DNA of 64,000 nt from an uncultured Anaerolineales bacterium (GTDB lineage: Bacteria; Chloroflexota; Anaerolineae; B4-G1): assembly GCA_964542755.1 (NCBI GenBank), contig CAZIWL010000001.1, positions 48,234 through 112,233 of the forward strand, given 5' to 3'. Below the pieces are notes generated by a model. It searched no databases. It worked only from the letters and a program-made list of their open reading frames with translations, and was not told the DNA's origin. Positions 44,249 through 61,422 of this stretch are shown one piece after another. The stretch's first letter is position 1. Every line of letters begins with the position of its first letter. The translations under genes were made by a program, and so were the position numbers.

Positions 44249-45466
44249 ATGGTAACGAAGATCACGGATACGATGGACCTGTCTCAAGCGCTCCAGACGC
44301 TCAAGTGGCTGGATCAGGAGCGGCGCAAGGACAGGGCTATGATTTCGAAGCTGGAGGAGCGTCTACAGGAGCAAGAACGGAGGATCGCCAGAAAGACGGC
44401 CCAGATCGAGGAGCTTCAGGGGGCTCTCACGCGGCTTGAGGGCCGGCTGTCCAAAATCGACGAGTTTGAGCAGATGGTCTCCAATTACAAGAAGGAGATG
44501 ACCTTCCAGCTTGAGCGGCGCGACGAGGCCTCGCACAAAGAGCGCGCGGAGGCCAAGCGGCTCCGCCGACTGGAGCACGAGGCCATGAAGGAGCACCTCA
44601 ATCGCCTGGAGAAGGAGCTCCGCGTCCTGCCACGTTATGATGAGCAGTTGAATGCCCGTCAGGCCGAGGAAGAGCGCATGAGCGGGAAGATCCAGTCGCT
44701 GGAGTCCATAGTGGCCGACCAGGATAAGCGGATCGAGGATGCGACCAACGCTGTGGCCTATCTGGAGGAGCGGCGTCGCTCAGATCATCGTCGCTTGATT
44801 GAAGCTGAGCAGAGTTTTCCCAAGATTCACAAGAAGATCGATACCTTGGCCCAGAAGTTTCCACTTCTCGAGCAGAGCGTGCAGAAGCTGGCCCCCCGCA
44901 TCGACGAGGCTATTCAGATGGCGCGGAAGTGGGAGAAACCCATCGAAGAGCTCCGAGTCTCCGACTTCCAGCGCGAGCAGAAGATGCAGTCCTACGTCGA
45001 TCAGGCCGAGGCGGTGGCGGAGGAGCTGGAGCGCGTTCGGCAGCAGACCCATGGGTTTATCGAGCGTCGAGAACAGGTGAAGCGGGCGCTGAGTGCCCTG
45101 GAGAAATTCCGAACCCGGATCGAACGCCGTCAGGACGAGATGTCGGAGAGACAGCGCATTGCCGAGGAACGCGTCGAGCGCGAGTGGGAGGAGTGGCAGT
45201 CCGAGCGATCGAAGGAGCGTAAGAGGCGGGAGCTGGTCATCGAACAGCGGTGGCAGGCCCAGGAGGAGGTCGATACTGAGCAGGCCGGCCGCCTGGGCGC
45301 TCTCGAGGATCTGACAAAGCTGCAACACGTGCAGTTGGGCTCCCTATGGGAGGTCCAACGCGCTGATGCTAATGCGCTGTTGAGCGCCGCGCAGGATGTC
45401 TACGAGCAGTTGGTCGCCCCGATCGACGACCAGCTGGCGAGCCTACGCGGCGAAGGGCAGGAGTAG
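44249..45466 (+). CDS. coiled-coil protein
   Basis: Heptad-rich, E/R/K/L-rich throughout; RBS GAGGAG. Confidence 0.65.
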   Translation: MVTKITDTMDLSQALQTLKWLDQERRKDRAMISKLEERLQEQERRIARKTAQIEELQGALTRLEGRLSKIDEFEQMVSNYKKEMTFQLERRDEASHKERAEAKRLRRLEHEAMKEHLNRLEKELRVLPRYDEQLNARQAEEERMSGKIQSLESIVADQDKRIEDATNAVAYLEERRRSDHRRLIEAEQSFPKIHKKIDTLAQKFPLLEQSVQKLAPRIDEAIQMARKWEKPIEELRVSDFQREQKMQSYVDQAEAVAEELERVRQQTHGFIERREQVKRALSALEKFRTRIERRQDEMSERQRIAEERVEREWEEWQSERSKERKRRELVIEQRWQAQEEVDTEQAGRLGALEDLTKLQHVQLGSLWEVQRADANALLSAAQDVYEQLVAPIDDQLASLRGEGQE

Positions 45467-45471
45467 CGGCG

Positions 45472-47412
45472 ATGCGAGTCATAGGTACGGCCGGTCACGT
45501 CGACCATGGTAAGTCGGCACTCGTGCTCGCGTTAACGGGGATCGACCCCGACCGTCTACGGGAGGAGAAAGAACGCGGTCTGACCATCGATCTCGGGTTC
45601 GCCTGGTTCACCCTCCCGGGCGGCGAACCCGTTGGGGTGGTTGACGTGCCCGGGCACCGAGATTTCATAGAAAACATGCTGGCCGGCGTCGGCAGTATCG
45701 ATGCCACACTCTTCGTGGTAGCTGCTGATGAGAGCGTCATGCCGCAGACGCGCGAGCACCTGGCAATTCTGGATCTCCTGGAGATCGACACCGGCATCGT
45801 CGTCATCACCAAGACCGACCTGGTGGAGAGCGAGGAATGGCTGGAGTTGGTCGTCGACGATGTGGCCGAGACGTTGACGGGCACGGTACTCGAGGATGCT
45901 CCCGTCGTGCTGACCTCCGCACGGACAGGGCGCGGTCTGGATGAGCTGCTGAACGTTTTGGAACGCATCCTTGCCATCCCGCAACGTCACCCGGATCGTG
46001 GGCGTCCTCGATTACCTATCGATCGCGTCTTTACCGTCAGTGGTTTTGGCACGGTTGTCACGGGCACCCTGATCGACGGCATACTCGAGACCGGGCAGGA
46101 AGTCCGAGTCCAGCCTCAGGGTCTGAAGGCGCGCGTTCGGGGCCTCCAAACGCATAAGGAGAAGATCGATCGTGCGGTGCCCGGCAGCCGCGTGGCGGTC
46201 AACCTGAGTGGCGTGGACATGGATCAGGTCGCCCGGGGGGACGTCGTGGCGTCTGGCGATTGGCTGCAGGGCACGACGCTGGTGGACGTGCGGATGCGCT
46301 ATCTCCCCGACATCCTTTGGCCGGATCTGGGGCAGTTTGCTCAGCGGCCCCTCCGGCACAACACCCGACTTAAGTTCTACACCGGCGCCGCCGAGGTTAT
46401 GGGGCGAGTCAGGCTCCTTGGGCAGAACGCTCTCCTTCCAGAGCAGGTCGGTTGGGTCCAACTCGAACTCCAGGAGCCAATCGCTATGGTGCGCGGCGAT
46501 CACTATATCGTCCGGCTGCCGTCTCCGCCGACCACCGTAGGGGGCGGTATCATTGTCGATCCACAGCCGAGGCACAAGCACCGCCGCTTTCGATCCGTCG
46601 TGGTCGACCGCCTTGAGACGTTGGCTGAGGGAAGCCCCGCGGATATCCTGCTGCAGACACTGGAGCGAGAAGAGGTCGTATCCGTGGAGGACTTGCTGGA
46701 GATGGGCGGGCTTGAGGAGCGTGCCCCCAGCGCCCTGCTTGATCTCCTCGCTGAGGGACGCGCGCTCGTGCTCAACGATGAGCGTCCTGAGGGGATAAGA
46801 CTGACCGAGCTGCCCAGATCTGCTGGAGCCTTGATCGTCAGCCGTGCGAGGTGGTCATCCCTGATCGACCACATCCTTGATGCTCTTTCGTCTTACCACG
46901 AGAAGTTGCCGCTGCGACCGGGAATGCCTCGAGAGGCCCTGCGCAGCCGCCTCCAGCTCGCTCCACGGATCTTCGACGCGGTCGTGGCTCAAGCAGAGCG
47001 TGAAGGACTCATCGTCGACGAGGGAGCGTCGGTGCGGCTTTCGTCCCACACCGTTGAGTTGACGCCTCAGCAAGGGGAACGGGTGAGTGTGCTGCTGGAC
47101 CGTTTCCGACGGGATCCCTACGCCCCTCCCTCGGCCAAGGAGGCCACCGAGATGGTGGGGGAAGACGTCTACCGGGTGCTCATCTCCCGAGAGGACCTGG
47201 TGCAGGTCTCCCCGGATGTCGTCTTCCTGCCAGAGACGTACGATGTCATGGTTACGCGCATCCGGGCTCAGATCGAGCGAGAGGGCAGCGTCACGCTGGC
47301 CGAGGTGCGCGATATGTTCGACTCCAGCCGAAAGTATGCCCAGGCTATGCTGGAGCATCTGGATGAGCAAGGTGTGACGAAACGGATGGGGGACAAGCGA
47401 GTCCTGCGTTGA
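45472..47412 (+). CDS. selB: selenocysteine-specific elongation factor
   Basis: GTPase G1 GHVDHGKS, DxPGH, NKTD; EF-Tu-like domains II/III; C-terminal winged-helix extension; length 646 aa. Confidence 0.85.
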   Translation: MRVIGTAGHVDHGKSALVLALTGIDPDRLREEKERGLTIDLGFAWFTLPGGEPVGVVDVPGHRDFIENMLAGVGSIDATLFVVAADESVMPQTREHLAILDLLEIDTGIVVITKTDLVESEEWLELVVDDVAETLTGTVLEDAPVVLTSARTGRGLDELLNVLERILAIPQRHPDRGRPRLPIDRVFTVSGFGTVVTGTLIDGILETGQEVRVQPQGLKARVRGLQTHKEKIDRAVPGSRVAVNLSGVDMDQVARGDVVASGDWLQGTTLVDVRMRYLPDILWPDLGQFAQRPLRHNTRLKFYTGAAEVMGRVRLLGQNALLPEQVGWVQLELQEPIAMVRGDHYIVRLPSPPTTVGGGIIVDPQPRHKHRRFRSVVVDRLETLAEGSPADILLQTLEREEVVSVEDLLEMGGLEERAPSALLDLLAEGRALVLNDERPEGIRLTELPRSAGALIVSRARWSSLIDHILDALSSYHEKLPLRPGMPREALRSRLQLAPRIFDAVVAQAEREGLIVDEGASVRLSSHTVELTPQQGERVSVLLDRFRRDPYAPPSAKEATEMVGEDVYRVLISREDLVQVSPDVVFLPETYDVMVTRIRAQIEREGSVTLAEVRDMFDSSRKYAQAMLEHLDEQGVTKRMGDKRVLR

Positions 47413-47431: not shown

Positions 47432-48058
47432 GTGAGCCCGATCAAGCTGCTGGGTATCTCTGGGAGCCCACGACGGGGGGCGACGGCCTACGCGGTCCAG
47501 GAAGCGCTGGCCTATGCCGAAACCCTTGGCGACGTGGAGACGGAGTTTGTCTCGGTGCGCGGCAAAGAGATCAAGTTCTGCATCCACTGCGACTACTGTG
47601 TGCGGAAGAAGGAGGGCTGCGTCTTCGAAGATGATGTCGCCAAGATGTATCCCAGCATGGAGGAGGCCGACGCGTGGGTCCTCGGCACTCCTGTCTATCA
47701 GGGAACCATGTCGGGACAGCTGAAAGCTGTCCTTGATCGTTGTCGAGCCATTGTCGCCAGGGACATCGACGCGCTCAAGGACAAAGTTGGGGTGGGGATA
47801 GCCACGGGTGGCGATCGAGTTGGGGGCCAGGAGCCGGCCATCACGGCCATCCACGCCTTCTACCTGGCGAACAAGATGATCCCCATCAGTGGAGGGCCAT
47901 TCGGCGCAAATCTGGGCGGCACCATCTGGTCGCGCGACAAGAAGGGTGCGGGTGCCGAGGCTGACGAGGTCGGGATGGAGAGCGTCCGGCGGTCAGTCAA
48001 TCGTCTTGTTGAGGTGACCTCGACGATCAAGGGCTCGAAGTTGCATGACGATTCTTGA
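47432..48058 (+). CDS. NADPH-dependent FMN reductase / iron-sulfur flavoprotein-like
   Basis: Flavodoxin-like fold LLGISGSPRRG and a Cys cluster CIHCDYC. Confidence 0.7.
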   Translation: MSPIKLLGISGSPRRGATAYAVQEALAYAETLGDVETEFVSVRGKEIKFCIHCDYCVRKKEGCVFEDDVAKMYPSMEEADAWVLGTPVYQGTMSGQLKAVLDRCRAIVARDIDALKDKVGVGIATGGDRVGGQEPAITAIHAFYLANKMIPISGGPFGANLGGTIWSRDKKGAGAEADEVGMESVRRSVNRLVEVTSTIKGSKLHDDS

Positions 48059-48083
48059 CAGATGCCATCGTACAGTGTATAAT
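48055..48083 (+). promoter_or_regulatory. perfect consensus sigma70 promoter TTGACA-17-TATAAT (leader A)
   Basis: Exact hexamers with a 17-nt spacer; the -35 overlaps the TGA stop of the reductase gene. Confidence 0.6.
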
Positions 48084-48089
48084 AGAAAG

Positions 48090-48195
48090 CATAATTAGAA
48101 TAATCTGAGCTACCCTACGGATGGGATTGTGAAGCTGCCAAATATCCGTCACGACGCAGCTTAACTGCCGAATCATTTATGATTCGGCGTTTTTG
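48090..48195 (+). ncRNA. candidate structured leader or sRNA A of about 105 nt (conserved motif plus terminator), unclassified
   Basis: Predicted TSS, a motif GCTACCCTACGGATGGGATTGTGAAGCTGCC at 48109..48139 that is shared with leader B, and a terminator. Confidence 0.5.
48167..48194 (+). terminator. intrinsic terminator GCCGAATCA-TTTA-TGATTCGGC plus GTTTTT
   Basis: 9-bp perfect stem, 4-nt loop, U-tract. Confidence 0.8.
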
Positions 48196-48795
48196 GTCTT
48201 AGGGGCCAACCGGTCCGCCTAGGGGGCCAGCCTAGTAGCACATCTTCCACAACCGGGGCACCACGCGCCCCGCCGCGATAGAAGGTCAGCTCGTACCAGA
48301 ATCGTGGTACAGTCTGCTTGAGAGTTGATGCCGTTACGATGCTGTTGAGCCGTAGCCAGCAACTTGCCTTCCGGGTATATTGTCGATGCCAAAAAGGCGA
48401 TCTCGCGCTTTCTTGAGTCATTGGTGGGCTTCACCCGCAATAGGCTTCGTTTCGGCGCGATCGACCCGAAACCCGTTCTGTGACGCCGTGGCCAGTGGGG
48501 CCGTGAGGCCTACTCTCTAAACGCCGTCTATGCTCATACGAGTACTGGATGACCATCGGCTGTTCTTGTTGCACACCGTTAGCGGTCTACCGGCCTTCTC
48601 TGGCAATCGCCTGATCGCGCGCACCAACCTCTCTCAAGGTAGACGATACATTTACCGGCGGGGGGCTGTGCATCGCTGCGGGGTCCGGCAGAAGAAAGGG
48701 GGTGACGACTGAACCATTAGCCTGGATGTTGTATGCGTCTCCTACAGATAGGACAACACAGACGGATAGATCAGATTCCAAGGAGGAATACTCAG

Positions 48796-50328
48796 ATGTC
48801 GTTGTACGAGAAGATGGTGAACGAGGCCGTTGGCGCCGCAAAGTCGGTTCTTGGCGTCATAAGGGAGAAGCGTGGCGGGACCTTCAAGATCGCCGACGCA
48901 AAGCCATACGTCGATGCCGTCAACGCGATGGAGCCCGGTGACGGGCAGTCCAAAGAGGTCTTCGACCTGCACGTCGAGTCGGTGAATACCCACTACAACA
49001 CATTGATGGAGCTCACCGACACCATTCGCCCCGAAGACGACCCCTTCGTCGAGCACTACCAGACTCCGCCCATCCTGGAGATCCTCTACGAGGAGGACTC
49101 AGAGTTCAAGGACTCGATGTGGCAGTTCATCGACGCGGTCGCCGAGAACAAGTCCTTGATTGGGCTCGATGCGGTTCGTCGCTACGGCGGCATGTACGGC
49201 ATGACCTGTGTGGTCGACTTTGCCTTCTCTGTCGGATCGGTACCCAATACAGTCAACCGTATCCTCCGGGAGATGGACATTCCGAAGGAGCACAAGCAGA
49301 CAATCCTGGCTTCGAAGTCATGGGGGATGAACACCTCATACGGCTTTGGCGCAGCTTTCCGGGGGGCACTCGAGTCCGGCAAGACGGCAGCCGAGGCAGA
49401 GCAGGCCGAGGTTGACCAGATTCAGCACATCTACCGCGACCCGGTGGAGGCCCAGGCTGAACTGATGGACACCCACAACCTGGGTGGGCACGGTGGACAT
49501 ACCTCGTTCGACACCCGCAAGTACATGGCCCAGTACAAGGAGGCCATGCGACCTCACGTGGTGGCTGCTATGGAGGCGGGCGTGCATCCTGCCAACATCA
49601 CAGCCGTGCCCGCCTACTGCGTGGGTGACATTGGTCATCACATCGCCCAGTCCGCGTACAATATGTTCAAGGACGACATGTCCTTCGGCATCTACGAAGC
49701 AGTGATGGGCGTCTTCGAGAATACCATGCGCCGTGGCGTCGAGCAGGACGCCTATGGCAGCGAGTGGGACGTTCTGGCCGTGGCGACTGGTGCGCCCGCC
49801 TGTGCCGCCGCGTACATCCTCTGGCTGGACAGCTTCACTGTCCCCATGGTGATCGATCTGTTCAACAAACGGTTCCACAACTACTGCTCGATGCACCCGG
49901 ACCGCGGTGAGGCGGACGAGCTGCACAATGTCGACACCATCGACATCCTGATGCGCGGTGAGTCGATCCTAGAGCCGAAGCCGCGTGGTGCCGGTCGCAA
50001 GGTCAAGGGCATCGAGGTCGATCTCAGCCCGGTTGAAAACCACGAGGTCGTCATGAATCCGCAGCGTTACACCTATCCGGCGTGCGCCATCACCCAGCGC
50101 TTTGCGGCGTTGATGCATATGGCTGACTTCCCGTGCTACATGACGCCCGAGTGCGTAACGGCCACGTTGATGACCAATGCCGTGGCGCTCAATCCGGACC
50201 GCCCCGGCGCCCCGGTCAGGGGATGCAAGGACTGCGCTATCTGCACGCTGAACAAGCGCAACGCGCCTATGGCGACGGGCCGTCTGACGGGTGATCAGGG
50301 TTATTGCGAGTGGCACCTGGCGGTCTAG
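48796..50328 (+). CDS. uncharacterised 510-aa protein, paralogous to the 609-aa protein at 51767; C-terminal Cys-rich segment
   Basis: RBS AAGGAGG. A shared segment AAMEAGVHPANITAVPAY matches [19 protein letters not shown] in the paralog. No known family recognised. Confidence 0.75.
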   Translation: MSLYEKMVNEAVGAAKSVLGVIREKRGGTFKIADAKPYVDAVNAMEPGDGQSKEVFDLHVESVNTHYNTLMELTDTIRPEDDPFVEHYQTPPILEILYEEDSEFKDSMWQFIDAVAENKSLIGLDAVRRYGGMYGMTCVVDFAFSVGSVPNTVNRILREMDIPKEHKQTILASKSWGMNTSYGFGAAFRGALESGKTAAEAEQAEVDQIQHIYRDPVEAQAELMDTHNLGGHGGHTSFDTRKYMAQYKEAMRPHVVAAMEAGVHPANITAVPAYCVGDIGHHIAQSAYNMFKDDMSFGIYEAVMGVFENTMRRGVEQDAYGSEWDVLAVATGAPACAAAYILWLDSFTVPMVIDLFNKRFHNYCSMHPDRGEADELHNVDTIDILMRGESILEPKPRGAGRKVKGIEVDLSPVENHEVVMNPQRYTYPACAITQRFAALMHMADFPCYMTPECVTATLMTNAVALNPDRPGAPVRGCKDCAICTLNKRNAPMATGRLTGDQGYCEWHLAV

Positions 50329-50385
50329 TCGAGCGGTGTGTCTAACGTCGTAGATCAGTAGCCCTGCAGCATCGTATCCGTAAAG

Positions 50386-50426
50386 GAGCTCAGGGAGGGA
50401 GGACTGAATCCGCTCTCCCTGAGCTC
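50386..50426 (+). other. 12-bp perfect inverted repeat hairpin (GAGCTCAGGGAG/CTCCCTGAGCTC) after the 531-aa gene
   Basis: Seen in the sequence; it lacks a clean U-tract. Confidence 0.5.
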
Positions 50427-50450
50427 TTCATTATCCTAGAGAGGGACGCT

Positions 50451-50666
50451 ATGTCGCCGTGCATCAGCTGTGTGATATCGAGCCAAGACGAGTACGGTCA
50501 CGACAGGACCTGGCAGTCCAAATGGATAGACACACGCTGCCCAGTCTGCGGCACAGGGTTTGAGGTTGGCGATCACGTGCTAGTCGATGAGGATACGATA
50601 ACTGCGTATCATGTCGAGTGCTACGATGGTTCCGGGGCCGCGCTTGAGGAAGGCGTCGTCATCTAG
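50451..50666 (+). CDS. small zinc-ribbon-like Cys protein (71 aa)
   Basis: CxxC...CxxC spacing and an RBS GAGGG. Small-ORF caveat applies. Confidence 0.45.
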   Translation: MSPCISCVISSQDEYGHDRTWQSKWIDTRCPVCGTGFEVGDHVLVDEDTITAYHVECYDGSGAALEEGVVI

Positions 50667-50777
50667 GGCCGCGCTGGATAGATCCGGTGGGACACCGCCA
50701 CGAGAGCCAAGTGAAGCGCCGGTGATCGACCATGGGGCTCGTCGGTCGAGTTGTCTCGTCCTTATCAGGGAGCTAGC

Positions 50778-51344
50778 ATGTCCGAAAAGGTGAAGGTGGC
50801 GTGGGGAATCACGGGCGCCGGAGACTACCTCAGAGAGTCCCTGGACGCAATGAGAGACCTGACGCGGGACTTCGGCGTCGAGGTTACCGTTCTGCTCTCC
50901 ACGAACGGGGAGCTGGTGGTGAAATGGTACGATCTGTGGGATGACCTGAATGCGAGTTTCGACAAGGTTAGGTCAGAAAAGGGCCCCAACCTGCCGTTCT
51001 TGGCGGGGCCTCTTCAACTCGGCCATTATGCCTTCCTCTTTGTGTCGCCGGCGACAGGGAACACTGTGGCGAAGATCGCGTATGGAATAGCGGACAGCCT
51101 TGTCACCAACTGTGTCGCGCAGACGGTCAAGGGGGGCACGCCAGTCTTTGTCTATCCGGTTGATCAGGTGGCGGGCAGCCAGGAGACGGAAGGCCCTCGC
51201 GGGGAGAGAATCACCATCAGCACCAGACAGATCGATCTGGACAACGTCGAGAAACTCAAGGCCATGCCCGGCGTTGAGGTTCTGGGGCATCCGGGCCAGA
51301 TAAGCTCGGTAGTGAAGGACACGCTGTTTTCCGAGGTGTCCTGA
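50778..51344 (+). CDS. flavoprotein of the HFCD family (UbiX/PPCDC/AfpA-like)
   Basis: VAWGITGAGDY flavin-binding start and a ..PATGNTVAKIAYGIADSLVT.. motif; start at the internal ATG with RBS AGGGAG. Confidence 0.7.
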   Translation: MSEKVKVAWGITGAGDYLRESLDAMRDLTRDFGVEVTVLLSTNGELVVKWYDLWDDLNASFDKVRSEKGPNLPFLAGPLQLGHYAFLFVSPATGNTVAKIAYGIADSLVTNCVAQTVKGGTPVFVYPVDQVAGSQETEGPRGERITISTRQIDLDNVEKLKAMPGVEVLGHPGQISSVVKDTLFSEVS

Positions 51345-51421
51345 GCTCCCTCGGGACTGTCCAAGGGACCCGCGGCACGGACCTGTCGCCGATCCAGTCT
51401 TAGCCCACACTATGTGCAATC

Positions 51422-51450
51422 TTGACATAGTCTGCCTGCTTGTGTATAAT
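51422..51450 (+). promoter_or_regulatory. perfect consensus sigma70 promoter TTGACA-17-TATAAT (leader B)
   Basis: Exact hexamers; shares the GTGTATAATAG context with promoter A. Confidence 0.6.
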
Positions 51451-51456
51451 AGCTGA

Positions 51457-51637
51457 CACAAATCGTTTCGAGCCAGCTGAGTGCCGCATCTATCTTCACA
51501 GTCGTTGGCTTCCAACCGAATATCGCGAACCCGCGAATGGTGCTACCCTGCGGATGGGACTGCGAGGTTGTGAATGATCTGCCCTAGTACAACCGAGCTG
51601 CCGAGACTTTGGTCTCTGTGCAGCTCGGTTCTTTTTT
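51457..51637 (+). ncRNA. candidate structured leader or sRNA B (conserved motif plus terminator), paralog of A
   Basis: Motif GCTACCCTGCGGATGGGACTGCGAGGTTG at 51542..51570; a GGTTGT/ACAACC hairpin; a terminator; and 130 nt to the GTG start of the 609-aa gene. Confidence 0.5.
51593..51637 (+). terminator. intrinsic terminator CCGAGCTGC...GCAGCTCGG plus TTCTTTTTTT
   Basis: 9-bp outer stem plus 5-bp inner stem, with a long U-tract. Confidence 0.8.
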
Positions 51638-51766
51638 TGGGAGGTGATACCAGGACATACAGGTGGTCGTGGGGCGTTCGGCAGATAGAAGGATCGTTGT
51701 TGACGAGCATCCCTCGCTATGAGGGATCTTGGGGGCCACATATTCAGACTATCAGGAGGTACTGAC

Positions 51767-53548
51767 GTGGAGAAGGAAATCCTTGCAACAATCGCAGCTA
51801 TGACGTCCAACATCGAGTACACGACGAGTGACCGGATCGAGGCGCTTACCAAAGGTCACGGCATGCTCAACATCGCGGCACTCTGCGCAGAGAACGCGAT
51901 GACGTGGGAGGTCCTCCAGGGGCGAGATATCTCCCTGACGGATGCGAATATAGAGAAACTCCCGCTGGATCACGTCATTGAGGCTGGGGTCAACGCCGCC
52001 ATGGAGGCGGGCGCTTTCCCGGCCAACGCCGCTGTGATTACGGCGACGCTGCTCCTCATCGCCGGCACCTCCCCCCGCGCAGGTGTTCCCGCCGGCAACC
52101 GAAAGCTCGGCGCTCTGGCACGCATGAAGGCTGGAGCGGGCCGGACCGGCGTGGTGTCGATTCCGACATCGAAGCTTACCAACAAGCTCTCTGGCTTCGC
52201 GGCCGTCCAGGGCCTCTATAACGCCATGATGGACGGTAATGTGGTCCGCATCGACGGCGCCCACGTCCCCGCGTTCGTCGCCGGCGGCGCGCCTATGGGT
52301 CACAGTGTCCTCGGCGAGGATATGGTCTACCCGGACATCTGCCTGAAGGGTGGTAAGGCTGCCGTTGACGCCATGATGAAAGCCTACCGGGGGGCCGGCA
52401 TCAGTCCCAGCCCGATCCAGTGCGCTATCCTGGCCGCCGCTGCCGTTCTCGAGGTTGTCAACCCCGATGGTATGATCGGCGCTGAGTACGGCGACTTCTT
52501 CGTGCAGGGGACCGGGTACCTGGCCGGCAAGGGTGCTGCCGACGCCGCCGGTCTCCCCGAGAAGCTGCACTTGCGGGGCACGGGCGACGAGTACGACACG
52601 GCGAGTCTGGTTGGCGGAATGGGTATGATCCTCAAGGATGTCGGAGCCCCCTCGGTGATCGGCATGATGACGGTCAATGAGATCCTGGCCGCCTTCGCTG
52701 AAGGTCCGATGATCGGCGCCGGCTTCGGTGGCGGTCCGGTCAACCCCCCGTTGGCTCACCTGGCTGCCGACGGCGTCATCGCGATGAAGGCCCTGATGAA
52801 CAACAAGGGCGACGTTGAGGCCGCGGCCGATATGCTTCACGAAGTCAAGATGACCCAGTGGATCGACCCCGAGATTGCCGCTTTCTCCACAAACACCATC
52901 ACCCGGAAGGCGGAGCAGGTCCGCCGTGGTCCTGTGACCGAGACGATCATCAAGGCCACCGACGGGATCCGGACCAACGCTCTGCACCGCCGCGCCAAGT
53001 TCGCTTACGACCAGCTGAACGAGGGTAAGGACCTGAAAGAGATCTGCGGTGCGCTCGACCAGGCACGCAAGGCGCGGGTGGAGGAGAACGCCGGCAAGAT
53101 CCTCAGCGGCTTCTTCGGCAAGGACATCACCATCACATTCGACAAGCTCGAGGGTGGTGCCCGCCGCGACCATCCCTTCGCACAGGCCTTCTGGGGCTTC
53201 GACGCTGACATCGATGCGACGGTCACCGTCGACGGCGAGGTATTCGAGTTCGAGGGCCTCAGCCACACGGTCATCCCGGACGCTGTCTTGAATCAGAAGT
53301 CCGAGCTGTCGTTGCCGATCACGGTCGCTGCCGCGGTGGCCCAGGAGCTGATGTACGTGGGCTGCTGCACGATCGACGCCGTGGTCCCCGCTGTGGTGGC
53401 TGCCGCTATGGGTACGTACACCTGGAAGGACGCCGGTAAGAAGGCTGAGAAGGGCGCCAATATCACCTGCTCCATCCCTGGAGCGAAGAACACGGCCCGC
53501 GAGGCTGCCCGGCTGGCAATTCGGATCTTGCAGGACCTGGAGGGCTAG
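51767..53548 (+). CDS. uncharacterised 593-aa Gly/Ala-rich protein, paralog of 48796..50328
   Basis: GTG start with AGGAGG 7 nt upstream. Head of a run of overlapping genes to the window end. The 666-aa antisense ORF is rejected. Confidence 0.7.
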
Positions 53549-53552
53549 GCTT

Positions 53553-53623
53553 CCTGGTCCCAACACGTAGGGACCAGGCCATGGATCAGGTAGAGGGCAG
53601 GTGAGAAAGCTCTCTACCTGATC
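53553..53623 (+). other. two consecutive perfect hairpins (9-bp CCTGGTCCC/GGGACCAGG and 12-bp GATCAGGTAGAG/CTCTACCTGATC) in an intercistronic gap
   Basis: Seen in the sequence; no U-tracts. Confidence 0.5.
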
Positions 53624-53650
53624 TCCTCTGTCAGGGAAGGGGCCTCTGTC

Positions 53651-54169
53651 ATGCTGATTCTGGTAAATGTAGATGACGTCCCGGGCGAACTCCTCCCACA
53701 CGTCATCAGCGGTCTGATGGCGCGTGGAGCCGAGAACGTCCACGCCGTTCAATCGATTACCAAGAAGGGGCGGCTGGGCTATATGATCTTCGTCGACGCA
53801 CCATCCGAGAAGCTGAACGAGCTCGGCGGATTCCTCGCGTCCGAGGTAGGAACGATCGGCATGCGGGTGCTTGAGTCACGTCACGTTTGTTTCGACTATC
53901 GGGTGCGGAGCATGCGCCTGACGGCGGGCGAAGCCAGCGGGCAAACCCAAGCCATCATTCGCGTGAAGGAGGTCTACGACGACGAGCGGGTCGTTTCGGT
54001 CAAAGCTGAGTACGAGGACTTGCGGTCCGCCCTTGACCGATTTGAGGGTTCGGGTGTGAACACCTCGCTCGTTGCACTCAAGCGCCTTGTGGAAGAGGCG
54101 GCGTTGGGCCAGGCTCAGATAGATCATTCGGGCATTCGGATCGAGAGGGTTAGGGAGGTTTCCACGTGA
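53651..54169 (+). CDS. standalone LarC C-terminal-domain-like protein (DUF111 family, nucleotide-binding half)
   Basis: LILVNVDDVPGE...TKKGRLG...EVGTIGMRV matches the LETNIDDMSGE...MKKNRPG...TTTLGVR pattern of the nickel-pincer cofactor protein LarC. Confidence 0.55.
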   Translation: MLILVNVDDVPGELLPHVISGLMARGAENVHAVQSITKKGRLGYMIFVDAPSEKLNELGGFLASEVGTIGMRVLESRHVCFDYRVRSMRLTAGEASGQTQAIIRVKEVYDDERVVSVKAEYEDLRSALDRFEGSGVNTSLVALKRLVEEAALGQAQIDHSGIRIERVREVST

Positions 54170-55026
54170 AGAAAATTCTGGTGCAACTCGACAACGACGA
54201 ATCCGCGAGCGTCTTCGATACGGTAGCGGCCTACGATTCTGGCGTTGACAGTGTCCTCCAATATGCCAGTGTGGCACCGGAGGACGTGCAGAACCTGGTC
54301 TACGGGGCGATTTTCACTCGTGGACCGCAGGACTTGAAGAATTCCGCCGTGTTCATCGGGGGATCGGATGTCGCGGTTGGAGAGAAGATGCTGAAGATCG
54401 CTCAAGATTCCTTCATCGGGCCTCTGAAGGTCTCGGTGATGCTCGATGCCAACGGCTGCAATACTACAGCCGCTGCAGCCGTCGCTAAGATGCTCTCGTC
54501 GGCAGACCTCTCGGGGGAAAAAGTGGTCGTTCTGGCGGGAACGGGTCCCGTTGGGATACGGGCTGCAGCTCTCTTCGCCCAGGAGGGCGCGGAGGTTACA
54601 CTGACGTCACGGGATCAAGCGCGAGCGGAGGAGGCTGCGGCTTCCGTCAGCGCCCGGTTTGATGTGAAGGTTGCGGGTGTGGCAGCTGCGGAAGAAGAGG
54701 ACCTTCGTGCAGCCCTTGAGGGGGCACGCGGAGTACTCTCAGCCGGTGCCGCTGGTGTTACCCTGCTGCCGGAATCGGTCTGGATTGAGCACCCAACCCT
54801 TCAAGTGCTTGGCGACGTGAATGCGGTTCCACCCTTGGGCATAGAAGGCATCAAAGTCCACTGGAAGGCCAAGGAGAAGCATGGCAAGATCATCTACGGT
54901 GCCATCGGTATAGGCGACTTCAAGATGAAGGTCCATCATGCCAGTGTTGCTCGCCTCTTCGAGCAGAACGACTTGGTCCTGGATGCCGAAGAGGTGTACG
55001 CGACAGCGAAAGAACTGTCGAGCTAG
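54166..55026 (+). CDS. mtdA: NAD(P)-dependent methylene-tetrahydromethanopterin/tetrahydrofolate dehydrogenase
   Basis: GTGA overlap with the upstream gene and RBS AGGGAGG. About 286 aa. Motifs FDTVAAYD, DANGCNTTAAAAV and VVLAGTGPVG resemble Methylobacterium MtdA. Confidence 0.75.
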   Translation: MKKILVQLDNDESASVFDTVAAYDSGVDSVLQYASVAPEDVQNLVYGAIFTRGPQDLKNSAVFIGGSDVAVGEKMLKIAQDSFIGPLKVSVMLDANGCNTTAAAAVAKMLSSADLSGEKVVVLAGTGPVGIRAAALFAQEGAEVTLTSRDQARAEEAAASVSARFDVKVAGVAAAEEEDLRAALEGARGVLSAGAAGVTLLPESVWIEHPTLQVLGDVNAVPPLGIEGIKVHWKAKEKHGKIIYGAIGIGDFKMKVHHASVARLFEQNDLVLDAEEVYATAKELSS

Positions 55027-56210
55027 TGCGCGTTCTCATCGTCGGCCTTAGCACTCGAGCGATCGCCCAGTCCGCGTACGAGGCCGGCCATGACATCGTG
55101 ACGCTCGACTACTTTGGAGACAGCGACCAGCGAGCTCTCGTAGAGAACCACTCCCTGCTCCGCGACTACGATCTGGCATACGGCCCTGAAGCGTTGGTCC
55201 GGGTAGGCCGGGAGCTGGATGCTCAAGCCGTCGTCTACACCGCGGGCTTGGAGAATGATCCTTGGGCGGTTGCGGACCTGGCGGAGGGCCGAACACTTCT
55301 CGGAAACGAGCCCGATGTCCTCTGCCAGGTCCGCAACTGGGATGTCCTACGGGGATTCTTCCGGGACGCAGGGATCGGCTTTGCAGAGACACTTCTGCCG
55401 GGCGAGGAAGGATTGGCAGAGCACTGTGAGCGCTGGGTTCGCAAGCCGGTTCGGAGCGGAGGCGGTCGCGACGTTGACTACTGGGACGGCAGCGCGCTAG
55501 CCTGTCATCAGATTCTGCAGGCCTACGTCGATGGCGTTCCGGCGTCAGCTGCCTTTGTCGCCGACGGCGAGGATAGCCTCGTTATCGGCGTGACCGAGCA
55601 GTTGATCGGGCGTGAGGAGCTGGGAGCCGCCGGTTTCGCCTGGTGCGGCAATATGGTACCCTTGGAGCTTGCAAAGGCTGACCGGGAGATTGTGTGGCAC
55701 GACATCGCCACTGCCGTCTCGCGCTTGACGAAGCACTTCGGCCTACGGGGAGTGAACGGTGTGGACTTCGTCCTTCACCGGTGTGCTGATGGGCGTCCGC
55801 AGCCGGTTGTCGTGGAGGTTAACCCTCGCTACACGGCCTCGATGGAGCTTTTCGAATCGGCGTACGACGAGAGCATTTTCTCTCTCCACGTTGAGGCTGT
55901 GAAGGGTCATCTGCCAACCAGCCAGGATCAAGCACGCTGGAAACGGACGGATGGTTACCTCGGCAAGGCAATCGTCTTCGCAAAGCGGCCCGTGACCATG
56001 CCCGACACCGGGGGCTGGTTTGGCCTGGGCAGGCACGACGTGCCGCATACTGGGGAGCGGATAGAGGCCGGACATCCCGTATGCACGGTGTTCGCGCGGG
56101 GTGACGGACGTCGTGGTTGTTGGAGCGGTCTCCTGGAGGCGGCTGAAAGTGTACGTCGCGAAATTGGAGACCAGATTGGAGGAGTGACTTGGACGCAACG
56201 TTCAAGCTAG
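55026..56210 (+). CDS. ATP-grasp ligase (MptN- or MfnD-like, H4MPT or methanofuran biosynthesis)
   Basis: ATP-grasp fold in a C1-cofactor context; GTG start overlapping the mtdA stop. Confidence 0.55.
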   Translation: MRVLIVGLSTRAIAQSAYEAGHDIVTLDYFGDSDQRALVENHSLLRDYDLAYGPEALVRVGRELDAQAVVYTAGLENDPWAVADLAEGRTLLGNEPDVLCQVRNWDVLRGFFRDAGIGFAETLLPGEEGLAEHCERWVRKPVRSGGGRDVDYWDGSALACHQILQAYVDGVPASAAFVADGEDSLVIGVTEQLIGREELGAAGFAWCGNMVPLELAKADREIVWHDIATAVSRLTKHFGLRGVNGVDFVLHRCADGRPQPVVVEVNPRYTASMELFESAYDESIFSLHVEAVKGHLPTSQDQARWKRTDGYLGKAIVFAKRPVTMPDTGGWFGLGRHDVPHTGERIEAGHPVCTVFARGDGRRGCWSGLLEAAESVRREIGDQIGGVTWTQRSS

Positions 56211-56551
56211 TAACTGGGCGAACGCGCAGCCAGGCTGATGGGCTGCACAAAGGCAAGGGCACCGAAGCCTATCGACAGGCGACGGAACGCGTGGAGATGA
56301 ATCAGGGCGACATGGGTGCCTTGGGCCTCAACGAGGGGTCTACCGTGCATCTACGGACGGATGCTGGGAGCGTCGATGTGATGGTTTACCAGGGCGAGCT
56401 CCCGTCCGGTCTCCTGTTCATGCCGCTGGGTCCTGCGGCAAACCGTCTCATCGGCGTCGAGACGGACGCCACGGGCACCCCCCGCTACAAGGATCTTCCT
56501 GTCATCGTAGAGCGGTCGGTCCGGGAAGGAGAAGCGGCAAGCGATGGCTAA
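56189..56551 (+). CDS. formylmethanofuran dehydrogenase subunit D-like protein (small beta-barrel subunit)
   Basis: TTG start with GGAGGAG RBS; KLVTGRT..Q N-terminus typical of FwdD/FmdD. Confidence 0.65.
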   Translation: MDATFKLVTGRTRSQADGLHKGKGTEAYRQATERVEMNQGDMGALGLNEGSTVHLRTDAGSVDVMVYQGELPSGLLFMPLGPAANRLIGVETDATGTPRYKDLPVIVERSVREGEAASDG

Positions 56552-57818
56552 GGTAGTGGAGAACGCCGTCTGCACGTTCTGCGGTTGTCTATGTGACGAC
56601 ATCACTGTGGAGGTCGAGGGCAACGCCGTAAGCCAGGTCCGTCGCACGTGCGCCAATGGCCGAGGCGTCTTCATGCACTACGACCCTGCGCCCCGACAGC
56701 CAACTGTCCGCGGCGAGGAGGTCACCTGGGGCGAGGCAGTCGAGGAGGCGGCGACAATCCTCTCGGAGGCCCATAGTCCCCTGATCTATGGGCTCAGTTC
56801 GACGGCTAGCGAAGCCCAGCGGAAGTGCGTTGCGCTGGCCGACTACCTGGGCGCCGTGATCGACACAACGTCTTCGGTCTGTCACGGCCCTACCGGACTG
56901 GCGATGCAGGCCGTGGGTGAACCCACTTGCACCCTGGGCGAGGTGCGGAACCGCGCAGACCTGCTCGTCTTCTGGGGCTGCAATCCGGCGGCCGCCCACA
57001 TGCGCCACTTCAACCGGTACTCGGTTACCGCCCGCGGGCGACTTACACCGAACGGGAAGAGGGACCGGACGACCGTGGTGGTCGATGTCCGCCCGACGGC
57101 CAGCACGCGGATAGCCGATCAGTTCCTCCAAGTTGAGCTTGGAAGTGACTTTGAGGTGCTGACTACCCTGTTGGCCTTCGTCCAGGGCAAGGGGGACAGG
57201 CTCACGGCGGAGGAGGTCGGTGGAGTGCCCATGGCGGAGCTGGAAGCACTGGCCGAGCACATGATGAGCTGCCGGTTCGGGGTGGCCTTCATGGGTATGG
57301 GGTTGACCCACACCCCGGGCCAGGACTTGACCGTGAGCGAGTTGTTCAAGCTGGTTGCAGCCCTGAACGACCACACCCGATTCTCCGTGATTCCGATGCG
57401 CGGACATGGCAATGTCGCCGGTGCGGACCAGGTGATGAGCTGGCAGTGCGGTTATCCGTTTGCGGTCAATTTCGCCCGAGGGTATCCGGTTTATGGGCCC
57501 GGGGAGTTCACGGCGGTCGACGTGCTCGCCCGCCAGGAGGCGGACGCCGCTTTGATTCTGGCCTCTGATCCCGTTGCCCATTTCCCACGCAGGGCGGCTG
57601 ATGAATTGGGGAAGATACCGGTCGTGGTCCTAGACCCGATGCCGAGTCTGACGACTGAGATAGCCTCGGTTGTCTTCCCCACGGCGTGCTACGGGGTAGA
57701 GGCGAAGGGTACGGCCTACCGCATGGACGGCGTACCCATTCAGCTACGGGCGGTGCTGCCGACCACCCGTCCGACCGATGAGGAGATCCTGGATCAGATT
57801 ACTGAGGCGGTGAGATGA
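56544..57818 (+). CDS. fhcB: formyltransferase/hydrolase complex subunit B (FwdB homolog)
   Basis: CTFCGCLCDD N-terminal motif and a molybdopterin-oxidoreductase-like fold. Confidence 0.8.
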   Translation: MAKVVENAVCTFCGCLCDDITVEVEGNAVSQVRRTCANGRGVFMHYDPAPRQPTVRGEEVTWGEAVEEAATILSEAHSPLIYGLSSTASEAQRKCVALADYLGAVIDTTSSVCHGPTGLAMQAVGEPTCTLGEVRNRADLLVFWGCNPAAAHMRHFNRYSVTARGRLTPNGKRDRTTVVVDVRPTASTRIADQFLQVELGSDFEVLTTLLAFVQGKGDRLTAEEVGGVPMAELEALAEHMMSCRFGVAFMGMGLTHTPGQDLTVSELFKLVAALNDHTRFSVIPMRGHGNVAGADQVMSWQCGYPFAVNFARGYPVYGPGEFTAVDVLARQEADAALILASDPVAHFPRRAADELGKIPVVVLDPMPSLTTEIASVVFPTACYGVEAKGTAYRMDGVPIQLRAVLPTTRPTDEEILDQITEAVR

Positions 57819-59455
57819 TGTTGGGGATTTTGAACGGGCGCGTTTACGATCCGATCCACGAGGTTGATGGGGAGGTGCAGGATGTGTGGATGGACGACGG
57901 GAAAATCGTCCCTCCCCCCGCAACCGAGGAGGCGAGACGCCAGGCCAGGACCATCGACGCTACAGGCCTCGTCGTTATGGCCGGAGGCGTGGACGTTCAC
58001 AGCCACATCGCGGGCGCCAAGGTCAATGCCGGCCGAAAGTTCCGGCCGGAGGACCACCGCGACCACGTCCGCGCGCGCACCCCTCTGACGCGCTCTGGCG
58101 CGGGCTACACCACACCGACCACGGCGATGATGGGCTACCTCTACGCCGAGATGGGTTACACGACCGTGATGGAGGCCGCGACGGCCCCACTGGTGGCGCG
58201 TCACACTCATGAGGAGCTGGAGGACATACCGATTCTGGACACCGGGGCCTATATCACCATGGGCAACAATCACTTCATCATGGAGTCCATACGCCGCGGG
58301 GAACGGGAGAAGGCTAGGGACTACGTGGCATGGCTGTTGCGGGCGACGAAGGGATATGCGATCAAGATCGTCAATCCCGGCGGTGTCGAGAACTGGAAGT
58401 GGCGCGGCAACGTCAAGGAACTGGACGACGAGGTGATTGGTTTCGAGGTCACCCCGCGTCAGATTCTGGAGACGCTCGCCTGGGTCAACGATGAGCTAGG
58501 CCTGCCGCACGTCCCGCATATCCACGGCCTCAATCTGGGGCAGGGTGGCAACGCCCGCACGACGGTCGAGACGATCAGGGCCCTCGACGGGCGCCCGTGC
58601 CACTTCTGCCATCTGCAGTTTTTGAGCTATGAGGGAGAACCCGATACGTTGCCCCGCTCGGGGGCGGTACAGGTGGCTCAAGCGGTCAACGAGCATAGGA
58701 ACGTTACGATCGACGTGGGACAGGTCGTCTTTGGTTCTGCCACCACAATGACGTCCGACGGCCCTCTCCAGTACCATCTCCACCGGCTCACGGGGGACAA
58801 GTGGCTCAACGATGATGTGGAGGCCGAGACCGGCGGTGGCCTCGTGCCAATGGAGTACGCGCCGAGGAACGCCGCCAACGCAACCCAGTGGGCCACAGGC
58901 CTGGAGTTGTTCCTGCTCATTGATGATCCCTGGCGGGTCTTCCTGACCACCGATCATCCCAACGCCGGTCCTTTCTTCCGTTATCCTTACGTCATCAAGC
59001 TGCTCATGGATCGTCAGGCACGCGCAGAAGCTTTCGAAGAGATCAGCCCCAGGGTCCGGAAGCGCTCGACTCTCGGGCAGCTGGAGCGAGAGTATTCGCT
59101 CTATGAGATCGCCATCATTACTCGGGCTGGTACTGCGCGCGCCCTGGGTCTGGACAACAAGGGGCACCTGGGCGTCGGTGCGGACGCTGATGTGGCTGTC
59201 TATGTCGACTTGGATGATCGGGAGGAGATGTTTGCGTCGCCGCGGTACGTGATCAAGGATGGGGAGATCGTCGTCCAGGATGGCAAGGTGGTGCGCGAGC
59301 AGCAGGGCCGAACCCTCTACGTTGAGCCTGCGTACGATCGCGGCATAGAGAAAGAGCTGCGGGATTACTTCCGGGACTACTACACCATCCAGTTCGATAA
59401 CTACCCGGTGTCACCTGACTATGTGCCCCGCGGGGAGGTCGTCGCGTGTCGCTAG
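57815..59455 (+). CDS. fhcA: formyltransferase/hydrolase complex subunit A (FwdA homolog, amidohydrolase)
   Basis: ATGA overlap; amidohydrolase metal motifs GGVDVHSHI...HIHGLNLGQGG. Confidence 0.8.
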   Translation: MMLGILNGRVYDPIHEVDGEVQDVWMDDGKIVPPPATEEARRQARTIDATGLVVMAGGVDVHSHIAGAKVNAGRKFRPEDHRDHVRARTPLTRSGAGYTTPTTAMMGYLYAEMGYTTVMEAATAPLVARHTHEELEDIPILDTGAYITMGNNHFIMESIRRGEREKARDYVAWLLRATKGYAIKIVNPGGVENWKWRGNVKELDDEVIGFEVTPRQILETLAWVNDELGLPHVPHIHGLNLGQGGNARTTVETIRALDGRPCHFCHLQFLSYEGEPDTLPRSGAVQVAQAVNEHRNVTIDVGQVVFGSATTMTSDGPLQYHLHRLTGDKWLNDDVEAETGGGLVPMEYAPRNAANATQWATGLELFLLIDDPWRVFLTTDHPNAGPFFRYPYVIKLLMDRQARAEAFEEISPRVRKRSTLGQLEREYSLYEIAIITRAGTARALGLDNKGHLGVGADADVAVYVDLDDREEMFASPRYVIKDGEIVVQDGKVVREQQGRTLYVEPAYDRGIEKELRDYFRDYYTIQFDNYPVSPDYVPRGEVVACR

Positions 59456-60862: not shown

Positions 60863-61422
60863 TCATCGAGACCTTGTTCGCAACGTTTAGCGACGCGGGA
60901 GAGCCCAACTTCGCACCAATGGGTGTGGTGTGGGGAGAGGACGAGGTGACCGTGCGGCCCTTTCGCGATACTACCACGTACCGAAACCTCGTCAGCACCT
61001 CGTGCGGCGTGGCGAATCTCACCGACGATGTCCTGCTCTTTGCCCAAGCCGCGCTCGAGGACGTCGAGCCTCCCTGGCGTCCCGCTTCTCACGTCAGAGG
61101 CGCCGTGCTCCGCAGTGCATGCGCGTGGAGAGAGCTGGAGGTCATCGATGAGAGAGGCCAGGGCACGCGGGCAGACATCAGATGCCGTGTCGTGGGGCGA
61201 GGGAACCAGCGCGAGTTCGTGGGTTTCAGTCGAGCGCGGAGCGCCGTGATCGAGGCAGCCATCCTCGCTACTAGACTCCATCTGTACCCACGGAAGGACG
61301 TTGAAGGGGCCCTCGAGCGGTATGATGATGTCGTAGCCAAGACTGGCGGGGAACGAGAACACGAGGCTATGCGGTATCTGCAGAGTTACGTGACAAGGTG
61401 GTACGGTGAGAATAAGGATTGA
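60859..61422 (+). CDS. DUF447-family protein (H4MPT-linked)
   Basis: Overlapping start; size and context match the DUF447 proteins found in methylotroph H4MPT clusters. Confidence 0.5.
   Translation: MIIETLFATFSDAGEPNFAPMGVVWGEDEVTVRPFRDTTTYRNLVSTSCGVANLTDDVLLFAQAALEDVEPPWRPASHVRGAVLRSACAWRELEVIDERGQGTRADIRCRVVGRGNQREFVGFSRARSAVIEAAILATRLHLYPRKDVEGALERYDDVVAKTGGEREHEAMRYLQSYVTRWYGENKD

Follow-up and report, generated by a model that had tools for sequence, protein, structure and literature searches.

A 64,000-nt stretch of DNA from an uncultured Anaerolineales bacterium (contig CAZIWL010000001.1, positions 48,234 to 112,233; hereafter the window) carries two leader modules, in each of which a consensus promoter is followed by a motif of about 60 nt and an intrinsic terminator. 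The motif is most likely a new candidate class of cis-regulatory RNA and a new riboswitch class. It is conserved in sequence and in gene context, folds into two kissing hairpins, and in most copies is mutually exclusive with the terminator that follows it. We favour, with somewhat more confidence than doubt, the reading that each module forms the 5′ leader of its operon and acts there as a transcription attenuator equipped with an RNA sensor, which would make it a riboswitch candidate. The promoter-aptamer-terminator architecture of an attenuating riboswitch had already been suggested by a first-pass annotation of the window, and it is supported here by 26 copies of the motif, by covariation, by the conserved gene context and by the lack of an Rfam family for the motif; each of the three refuting outcomes that the annotation had named was checked, and all three checks went in favour of its proposal.

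Two Leader Modules Share a Promoter, a Motif and a Terminator

Both modules lie on the + strand, and all positions are numbered within the window. Their parts are listed below; the A- and B-type are named for the gene arrangements described in the next section, and P and L denote helices and loops.

48055..48083, + strand: promoter of module 1, TTGACA-17-TATAAT, 12/12 consensus positions (promoter pattern scan)
48109..48169, + strand: motif copy 1 (A-type aptamer), covariance-model match of 73 bits, E = 3e-17, with parts assigned from alignments and pair counts: GCUA, 48109-12; P1, 48113-15/48123-25; L1 kissing strand ACGGAU, 48117-22; P2a 5′ strand, 48127-32; P2 5′ strand, 48133-38; L2, 48139-55, with kissing strand AUCCGU, 48144-49; P2 3′ strand, 48156-61; P2a 3′ strand or tail UAACUG, 48162-67; CC, 48168-69
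48166..48194, + strand: intrinsic terminator of module 1, 10-bp stem at 48166-48189, loop UUUA, U5 (fold prediction)
51422..51450, + strand: promoter of module 2, TTGACA-17-TATAAT, 12/12 consensus positions (promoter pattern scan)
51542..51602, + strand: motif copy 2 (B-type aptamer), covariance-model match of 81.9 bits, E = 9e-20: GCUA, 51542-45; P1, 51546-48/51556-58; L1 kissing strand GCGGAU, 51550-55; P2a 5′ strand CUGCGA, 51560-65; P2 5′ strand GGUUGU, 51566-71; L2, 51572-88, with kissing strand AUCUGC, 51577-82; P2 3′ strand ACAACC, 51589-94; P2a 3′ strand or tail GAGCUG, 51595-51600; CC, 51601-02
51591..51638, + strand: intrinsic terminator of module 2, AACCGAGCUGC.../...GCAGCUCGGUU, then CU7 (fold prediction)

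The two module promoters, which have GTGTATAATAG in common, are the only 12/12 matches to TTGACA-N17-TATAAT in the window, and with one mismatch allowed there are 4 sites against 0.04 expected. The −35 box of module 1 overlaps the stop codon of the upstream flavin mononucleotide (FMN)-reductase gene (47432-48058). The core of the motif begins at 48109 in module 1 (GCTACCCTACGGATGGGATTGTGAAG) and at 51542 in module 2 (GCTACCCTGCGGATGGGACTGCGAGG). A 26-nt element, GCTACCCTRCGGATGGGAYTGYGARG, occurs exactly at 48109-48134 and 51542-51567 and at no other place in the window, with 0 occurrences expected by chance, and the same two sites alone are found even when three mismatches are allowed in this 26-nt core.

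The first-pass annotation had described an exact promoter in each module, a conserved element of about 30 nt, a strong intrinsic terminator, and distances of about 600 nt to the start codon at 48796 and about 130 nt to that at 51767, all of which were recovered here. It had also equated AAGCTGCC of module 1 with GAGCTGCC of module 2, which are not homologous by alignment: AAGCTGCC is the 5′ strand of helix P2 (48132-48139), and GAGCTGCC (51595-51602) corresponds to TAACTGCC at 48162-48169 in module 1.

The Motif Recurs Upstream of Tetrahydromethanopterin-Related Operons

Module 1 precedes operon A, whose first gene (gene 1) encodes a protein of family DUF2193, and module 2 precedes operon B, whose first gene (gene 2) encodes a conserved 593-aa protein. 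An exact-pattern scan with GCTACCCTNCGGATGGGAYTG, blind to gene context, of 185,579 species genomes (one genome per species) yielded 7 loci. Five of them carry the full motif, in each case ahead of a homologue of DUF2193 or gene 2, and the remaining two, L001 and L004, are bare cores within coding sequence, which is close to the chance expectation (L-numbers denote retrieved loci outside the window, and a and b denote tandem or multiple copies at one locus). The five full-motif loci belong to four Anaerolineae/Anaerolineales metagenome-assembled genomes (MAGs) and one "delta proteobacterium" MAG, and the whole architecture is present in each. A further 80 metagenome loci were collected via gene-2 homology and 17 via exact-protein look-ups, and all loci were searched with two covariance models, R1 built from 17 sequences and the broader R2 built from 26.

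These searches, of the kind that the first-pass annotation had proposed, gave 26 distinct motif copies in the window and in public MAG or metagenome contigs, with compensatory changes in P2 and in the kissing pair. The covariance scores fall into two separate groups, 38-85 bits for members and at most 18.6 bits for noise. Over the loci searched, the broader model R2 added no members, and most gene-2 leaders are truly without the motif. The named sources of the copies are mostly Anaerolineae, with one deltaproteobacterial MAG. Identical contigs are present in the metagenomes Ga0180432 and Ga0180434.

Every copy lies on the same strand as, and upstream of, one of four gene arrangements. In the A-type, the motif precedes DUF2193-(Prok-RING)-FMN_red-AfpA by 340-690 nt, and in the B-type it precedes gene2-LarC2-MtdB-ATPgrasp-Fhc... 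by 130-250 nt. The third arrangement is MtdB-like-ATPgrasp-gene2 (L082), and the fourth is GHMP kinase-LarB-LarC1-gene2-LarC2-MtdB (L054). Tandem copies, each with its own terminator, are present in L002 and L044. The conserved gene context and the tandem copies fit a cis-acting attenuator. The motif is absent at 9 retrieved loci where gene 2 accompanies only larB/larC, some of them with nickel transport genes, and also from most lower-identity gene-2 loci. These results indicate that the motif tracks the tetrahydromethanopterin (H4MPT) context, and not gene 2 or nickel in themselves.

Several of the retrieved loci have features of their own. In L018, L102, L103 and L002 (3223-4766), the DUF2193 gene after an intact motif is fragmented or frameshifted, with motif and terminator kept, which could be an assembly error or pseudogenisation. 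In L054, a second terminator-like hairpin after the motif terminator (2905-2960) repeats the tail (GGCCGAGCUGCCGAAUCGAUUUUCAGCUCGGCC-U7) with no aptamer before it, and looks like what remains of a former tandem copy. In L093, a gene for a PocR-domain helix-turn-helix (HTH) regulator (8929-9678) lies immediately upstream of the motif-bearing gene-2 leader, and this operon may be under both protein and RNA control. Six motif-less loci (L056, L058, L060, L062, L067 and L070) share another, conserved leader of about 180 nt (…AGAUCUCUCGCCCUACACAGCCCUCAUCUUUUGGCCUGGGAGAUU…GGCUGUUUCCAAGGUGAAGGGGGGUG), which sits about 300 nt upstream of gene-2 homologues of about 62% identity and is possibly a further leader RNA of this operon, unrelated to the motif. 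The occurrence of GCUACCCUGCC in the leaders of L020 and L021 is in a different hairpin context and was judged coincidental.

Fold and Covariation

The motif begins with an invariant, unpaired 5′ GCUA. This is followed by P1, a 3-bp CCC/GGG hairpin that is invariant except in L042 (CACC/GGUG) and has a 7-nt loop, U-RCGGAU, and by a single A linker. The L1 strand RCGGAU pairs, loop to loop, with AUCCGY in the second hairpin, giving a 6-bp kissing helix. The first kissing pair (12:56) is G-C in 14 copies, A-U in 8 and G-U in 2, and the two window copies differ by a compensated change in this helix, ACGGAU/AUCCGU versus GCGGAU/AUCUGC.

The second hairpin, P2a/P2, is irregular and spans 12 positions. 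P2 consists of six Watson-Crick pairs whose sequence varies freely; double compensatory changes are seen in four of the six. In P2a, unexpectedly, the conserved tail G-A-G-C-U-G is the pairing partner of the joining segment C-U-G-C-G-A, in the order C-G, U.U, G-C and C-G, and then tandem sheared G.A/A.G in a CGAG/CGAG context. The three Watson-Crick positions of P2a are canonical in all 26 copies (C-G in 20 and U-G in 6; G-C in 26; C-G in 22, U-A in 3 and U-G in 1). The conserved U.U is replaced by G-C in L042, and the tandem G.A/A.G is sometimes C-G, A-U or U-A in single copies; the CGAG/CGAG context is very stable. This helix explains the conserved "GCTGCC" that the first-pass annotation had pointed out.

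The observed covariation score was reached by none of 500 column shuffles, and sliding the register lowered the paired cells from 83% to 22-42%. RNAalifold independently gave P1, P2 and two P2a pairs, and an all-against-all column scan revealed the P2a pairing of the tail with the joining segment J1/2. About 28 paired cells are G.U, that is, C.A mismatches on the opposite strand, which indicates that only the + strand transcript has this structure. A search for pairing partners of the invariant 5′ GCUA gave none of general occurrence, UAGC being present in L2 of L003 and L005 only. Likewise, neither inspection nor the all-against-all column scan revealed an antiterminator formed by the GCUGCC tail with another aptamer segment, which would need GGYRGY.

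Two other identities for the element were considered and rejected. It is not an L7Ae-type kink-turn, since the tandem G.A/A.G (CGAG/CGAG) is symmetric and there is no bulge between P2 and P2a. Nor does it look like a DNA operator for a protein, which the first-pass annotation had named as a possible refutation of its proposal: the element contains the G.U cells, is found 6-150 nt after the −10 box, is always oriented like the downstream genes and is always followed by a terminator.

Transcript Start and the Aptamer-Terminator Overlap

A promoter with at least 10 of the 12 consensus positions lies 6-150 nt upstream of the motif in 19 of the 26 copies, ten of them being perfect; in tandem pairs, the second copy lacks a separate promoter. 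The first G of the motif follows the end of the −10 box by 6 nt in L006, L093 and L094, and by 8 nt in L038. This spacing suggests that the transcript starts at or near this G, which fixes the 5′ boundary of the motif. At the other end, a hairpin and a U-tract follow every copy, the U-tract being weak in the high-GC loci L038 and L042.

In module 2, the 5′ strand of the terminator is composed of the last 4 nt of P2 and the whole P2a tail. The terminator stem (51591-51630) has a predicted energy of −27.9 kcal/mol, and the terminator state, in which P2 is destroyed, lies 15 kcal/mol below the aptamer-enforced state. The same composition, with the last 3-7 nt of P2 and the whole P2a tail, is found in about 21 of the 26 copies (in L003, L011b and L077 by inspection). 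Twelve representative leaders were folded, the kissing term not being counted. For nine of these (B-type, L003 and L044a), unconstrained folding gave, as the minimum free energy (MFE) structure, the complete terminator with P2 disrupted; its energy is 6.7-20.9 kcal/mol lower than that of the state in which the aptamer is enforced, and this latter state retains no functional terminator. Because in the copies with this overlap the 3′ strand of the aptamer is also the 5′ strand of the terminator, a stabilised aptamer should prevent termination, and an ON switch is predicted. As modelled, this exclusive design would be that of a standard ON riboswitch, with the stabilised aptamer acting as the antiterminator.

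The Spacer Downstream of the Terminator and a T-Box Leader in the Window

The following features concern the region between terminator and start codon, including Shine-Dalgarno (SD) sequences, and the leader of pheST, which served as an internal control.

48195..48795, + strand: spacer before DUF2193, in which an alignment across 9 loci showed no conservation except an SD-like box and the SD
48696-48709, + strand: SD-like box AAGGGGGUGACGAC
48780-86, + strand: real SD of DUF2193, AAGGAGG
51639..51651, + strand: extended SD-like box GGGAGGUGAUACC, directly after the terminator and 115 nt before the real start
30235-30263: pheST promoter, TTGACA-17-CATAAT, near-consensus
30290-30561: pheST T-box leader, 87.6 bits, E = 1.5e-19 (the Rfam gathering score is 93, so the default scan missed it)
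near 30541-30578: pheST terminator, then about 250 nt of further leader before the start codon (region 30235-30828)

The 600-nt spacer before DUF2193 yielded no second strong promoter; its best candidate is a 9/12 match at 48353. The long, non-conserved spacer of the A-type keeps the reading as a stand-alone small RNA (sRNA) alive for module 1. The pheST leader, with its promoter, T-box, terminator and spacer of about 250 nt, indicates that this organism uses the long-spacer layout for a bona fide riboregulator.

Extended SD-like boxes (GGGAGGUGAUAC, GGAGGUGAGA, AAGGGGGUGACGAC) lie 60-130 nt before the real starts of gene 2 and DUF2193. They are usually located right after the terminator, and are found in most gene-2 leaders (L010-L087), with or without the motif; the terminator of the pheS T-box is likewise followed by GUAGGAGGCG (30577-30590). 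No leader peptide was found after the SD-like GGAGGUGAU box, where no start codon lies at a workable distance. Possible roles of the box are those of a ribosome standby site or of an anti-Rho site.

Genes of the Two Operons

The genes downstream of the two modules, assigned by family searches, are as follows.

48796..50328, + strand: gene 1, DUF2193 ([4Fe-4S]-binding family), first gene of operon A (PF09959, E = 2e-225)
50451-50666, + strand: Prok-RING zinc ribbon, operon A
50778-51344, + strand: AfpA-like flavoprotein, operon A
51767..53548, + strand: gene 2, 593-aa conserved protein, first gene of operon B (family searches and homologue comparison)
53651-54169, + strand: LarC2-like, operon B
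54166-55026, + strand: MtdB-like, operon B
55026-56210, + strand: ATP-grasp, operon B
56544-57818, + strand: FhcB, operon B
57815-59455, + strand: FhcA, operon B
59492-60862, + strand: pterin-binding, operon B
60859-61422, + strand: DUF447, operon B
61406-62374, + strand: GHMP kinase, operon B
62390-63346, + strand: Ftr, operon B

The genes after gene 2 together form an H4MPT/methanofuran one-carbon (C1) module, in which Mtd, Fhc and Ftr oxidise H4MPT-bound C1 units. GHMP-kinase-like genes are present in the motif-controlled operons, and from their N-terminal sequence they may resemble the synthase of 4-(beta-D-ribofuranosyl)aminobenzene 5′-phosphate (beta-RFAP). In operon A, the AfpA-type flavoproteins are related to dihydromethanopterin reductases (TIGR02700 match). 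DUF2193 proteins bind a [4Fe-4S] cluster and frequently adjoin major intrinsic protein (MIP) channels (PMC12375889).

Gene 2 has no match in Pfam, NCBIfam or PDB. Its conservation is extreme: among the best 120 of its 643 database relatives, identities are 73-94%, and the named ones are hypothetical proteins. Its AlphaFold model, with a mean predicted local distance difference test (pLDDT) score of 57.9, is too poor for a fold search. The nickel-pincer family of NphT and the aldo-keto reductases (AKR) (PMC13524815) was ruled out for gene 2, that family being PF00248. The first-pass annotation had taken genes 1 and 2 to be paralogous, but they are not (BLASTP E = 0.039 over 22 residues; hhalign probability 0.6%). 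A LarC2-like gene always follows gene 2 (window 51767-54169; L088-L092, L095-L098, L101 and L054), and genomes without H4MPT genes have gene2-larC2-larB-larC1 clusters, some of them beside nikR and the cbiMQO nickel uptake genes. The larC2/larB/larC1 neighbourhood suggests that gene 2 represents a new protein family that depends on the nickel-pincer nucleotide (NPN) or takes part in its biosynthesis.

Elsewhere in the window, the FMN reductase and module 1 are closely preceded by the gene for the selenocysteine elongation factor SelB (45472-47412), which in turn comes after a gene for a 405-aa coiled-coil protein without family assignment (region 44249-47412). Between 8662 and 25659, eight consecutive co-oriented genes encode membrane proteins of 590-850 aa, six of them with PMT_2 (dolichyl-phosphate-mannose-type glycosyltransferase) domains, an unusually long tandem array of paralogues.

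Proposed Mechanism and Candidate Ligand

In the mechanism that we propose, the strong sigma-70 promoter would start a transcript that soon forms the sensor of about 60 nt, and the 3′ strand of P2/P2a (..AGCC-GAGCUG-CC) would also serve as the 5′ strand of the intrinsic terminator behind it. Stabilisation of the sensor, which would presumably come from a small ligand on the invariant unpaired and non-canonical nucleotides, would keep the terminator from forming, and RNA polymerase would read into the operon. When the sensor is not stabilised, the far more stable terminator would strip P2 apart, and transcription would stop. Ligand binding, the ON polarity and the identity of the ligand are what we infer.

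The regulon is coherent and comprises H4MPT biosynthesis and reduction, C1 oxidation by Mtd, Fhc and Ftr, and the 593-aa protein, and for this reason an H4MPT-pathway metabolite would be the most likely ligand, a guess that is drawn from gene context, as is the C1 or pterin-related ligand that the first-pass annotation had suggested. An ON polarity, as predicted, would point to a substrate or to a signal of deficiency, as with the riboswitch for 5-aminoimidazole-4-carboxamide riboside 5′-triphosphate (ZTP), rather than the finished cofactor. Candidates would be dihydromethanopterin (H2MPT) or H4MPT, a C1 adduct, for example methylene-H4MPT, or, by analogy with ZTP, a precursor that builds up at cofactor shortage. 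It is a tentative, rather doubtful proposal that the motif is the first riboswitch class for the methanopterin C1 branch, an ON switch for an H4MPT-pathway metabolite that co-induces three modules. These would be the AfpA/DUF2193 reductase module, the Mtd/Fhc/Ftr formaldehyde-oxidation module and the 593-aa family, which is genetically tied to the biosynthesis of the nickel-pincer nucleotide.

Weighing the Attenuator Reading against Its Rivals

Several points weigh against an attenuator with an RNA sensor of its own. In five A-type copies (module 1, with 2 nt, L011a, L099, and L002a/b), the terminator shares no more than 1-2 nt with the aptamer. The two form together in the MFE structures of module 1, L002b and L099, which were folded, and are compatible by inspection in L011a and L002a; for these five copies, the predicted structures reveal no switch at the level of secondary structure. 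The A-type copies are also separated from the start codon by 340-690 nt of spacer that is not conserved. About 55 of the 80 gene-2 loci are without the motif, P1 has no covariation support, and part of the covariation may come from few evolutionary events, given the narrow phylogenetic sample. The roles given to the 5′ GCUA and to A18 are guesses, and that a ligand binds is something we infer. In addition, a switch that senses the end-product cofactor of the pathway would not usually be expected to have ON polarity.

Conserved hairpins that overlap a terminator fit protein antitermination equally well, and the same fold might be stabilised or melted by an RNA-binding regulator of the PyrR, TRAP or LicT/ANTAR type. 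Operon A often includes a 71-aa zinc-ribbon (Prok-RING) protein, and other lineages use proteins to control this operon, with a NikR or PocR-HTH regulator beside gene 2, but no candidate RNA-binding protein accompanies all copies, Prok-RING being missing from L002, L044 and the loci with B-type copies only. The ANTAR signature of two hexaloop hairpins is also absent, and invariant unpaired or non-canonical nucleotides in a compact kissing fold are typical of small-molecule aptamers. We consider such a protein-dependent attenuator unlikely. The compatibility of aptamer and terminator in module 1, L002b and L099 speaks for a stand-alone sRNA, especially for A-type modules such as module 1. The module would then be a gene of about 105 nt whose product acts in trans or by sequestering, with DUF2193 transcribed separately, and the strong terminator, the long non-conserved spacer and the perfect-consensus promoter, as for many abundant sRNAs, agree with this. 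However, the spacer holds no second strong promoter (9/12 at best), the position and orientation before the same operons are kept across lineages, and tandem copies occur in one leader. The exclusivity of terminator and aptamer in the B-type is not needed by a plain sRNA, and the true T-box leader in the window also has a spacer of about 250 nt. The sRNA explanation is quite improbable in our estimate.

A two-hairpin element of about 60 nt between the strong promoter and the terminator of a very long (~12-kb) operon also recalls processive antitermination, in which an RNA such as HK022 put or the Bacillus subtilis eps-associated RNA (EAR) modifies the polymerase to ignore terminators and senses nothing. 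Such elements share no strands with the terminator that they suppress, whereas the overlap in the motif leaders is systematic. Tandem sensor-terminator units (L044, L002) would make little sense for a constitutive element, and Rfam gave no similarity to EAR. It is highly improbable that the motif works in this way.

Significance

Riboswitches are known for folate-type pterins, the molybdenum cofactor (Moco) and ZTP, and bacteria oxidise formaldehyde by a methanopterin-dependent C1 pathway. In the literature, no report was found of a riboswitch for methanopterin-dependent C1 metabolism. A validated ligand would show the signal by which uncultured Anaerolineae switch on the H4MPT pathway, and the motif would supply a small (~60-nt) sensor for its metabolite. 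The motif would also give a functional handle on two orphan families, DUF2193 and the 593-aa LarC2-linked protein, the latter of which is possibly a new nickel-pincer-cofactor enzyme with a link to H4MPT chemistry. For structure determination, the compact fold of kissing hairpins, in which the CGAG/CGAG tandem G.A and the U.U are conserved, would be a tractable target.

Comparison with Known RNA Families

Rfam 15 at the gathering score gave no match in the whole window, and at E <= 10 over 47900-51900 it gave three unrelated weak matches elsewhere in the region and none on the motif. The motif is thus in no Rfam 15 family even at this threshold, the families covered including ZTP, THF-I/II, Moco, NiCo, guanidine-I/II/III, SAM/SAH, fluoride, EAR, and pistol and other ribozymes, in line with the first-pass annotation, which had matched it to no riboswitch consensus. 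Literature on DUF2193, on riboswitches with methanopterin and on orphan riboswitches with Chloroflexi yielded no description of the motif, which has no defining sequence or structure feature of the ZTP, tetrahydrofolate (THF), guanidine-II or purine classes.

The ZTP riboswitch (pfl, RF01750) resembles the motif in being a short pseudoknotted leader aptamer in one-carbon cofactor metabolism, and in that the folded aptamer captures a strand of the intrinsic terminator, giving an ON switch. However, the motif has no cmscan match to it at E <= 10, the motif fold consists of kissing hairpins and a tandem-G.A helix, and its regulon is that of H4MPT, whereas the ZTP regulon is that of folate and purine. 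THF-I and THF-II (the folE motif) tie pterin-cofactor genes to a pterin metabolite, and would be the nearest functional analogy if the ligand were an H4MPT-type pterin. In contrast to the motif, the THF riboswitches act mostly as OFF switches for genes of folate transport and synthesis. THF-I folds into a three-way junction with a pseudoknot and THF-II into one hairpin interrupted by an internal loop, and the motif has no Rfam match to either.

Guanidine-II (mini-ykkC) and purine riboswitches also require loop-loop kissing for their function, and the ACGG present in L1 of about one third of the copies recalls the ACGR loops of mini-ykkC. Membership in guanidine-II was rejected, as that class requires two short GC-rich hairpins, both with ACGR tetraloops, whereas L1 of the motif has 7-8 nt (RCGGAU, mostly with G first) and L2 has 14-20 nt without ACGR. 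The three-way junction and closing P1 of the purine class are both absent from the motif, which has no cmscan match to that class. The T-box of pheST is about 270 nt long and senses tRNA, whereas the motif is about 60 nt long, without a specifier or T-box sequence; within the same window, the pheST T-box leader nevertheless has the same layout as the motif leaders, including the SD-like box and the long spacer.

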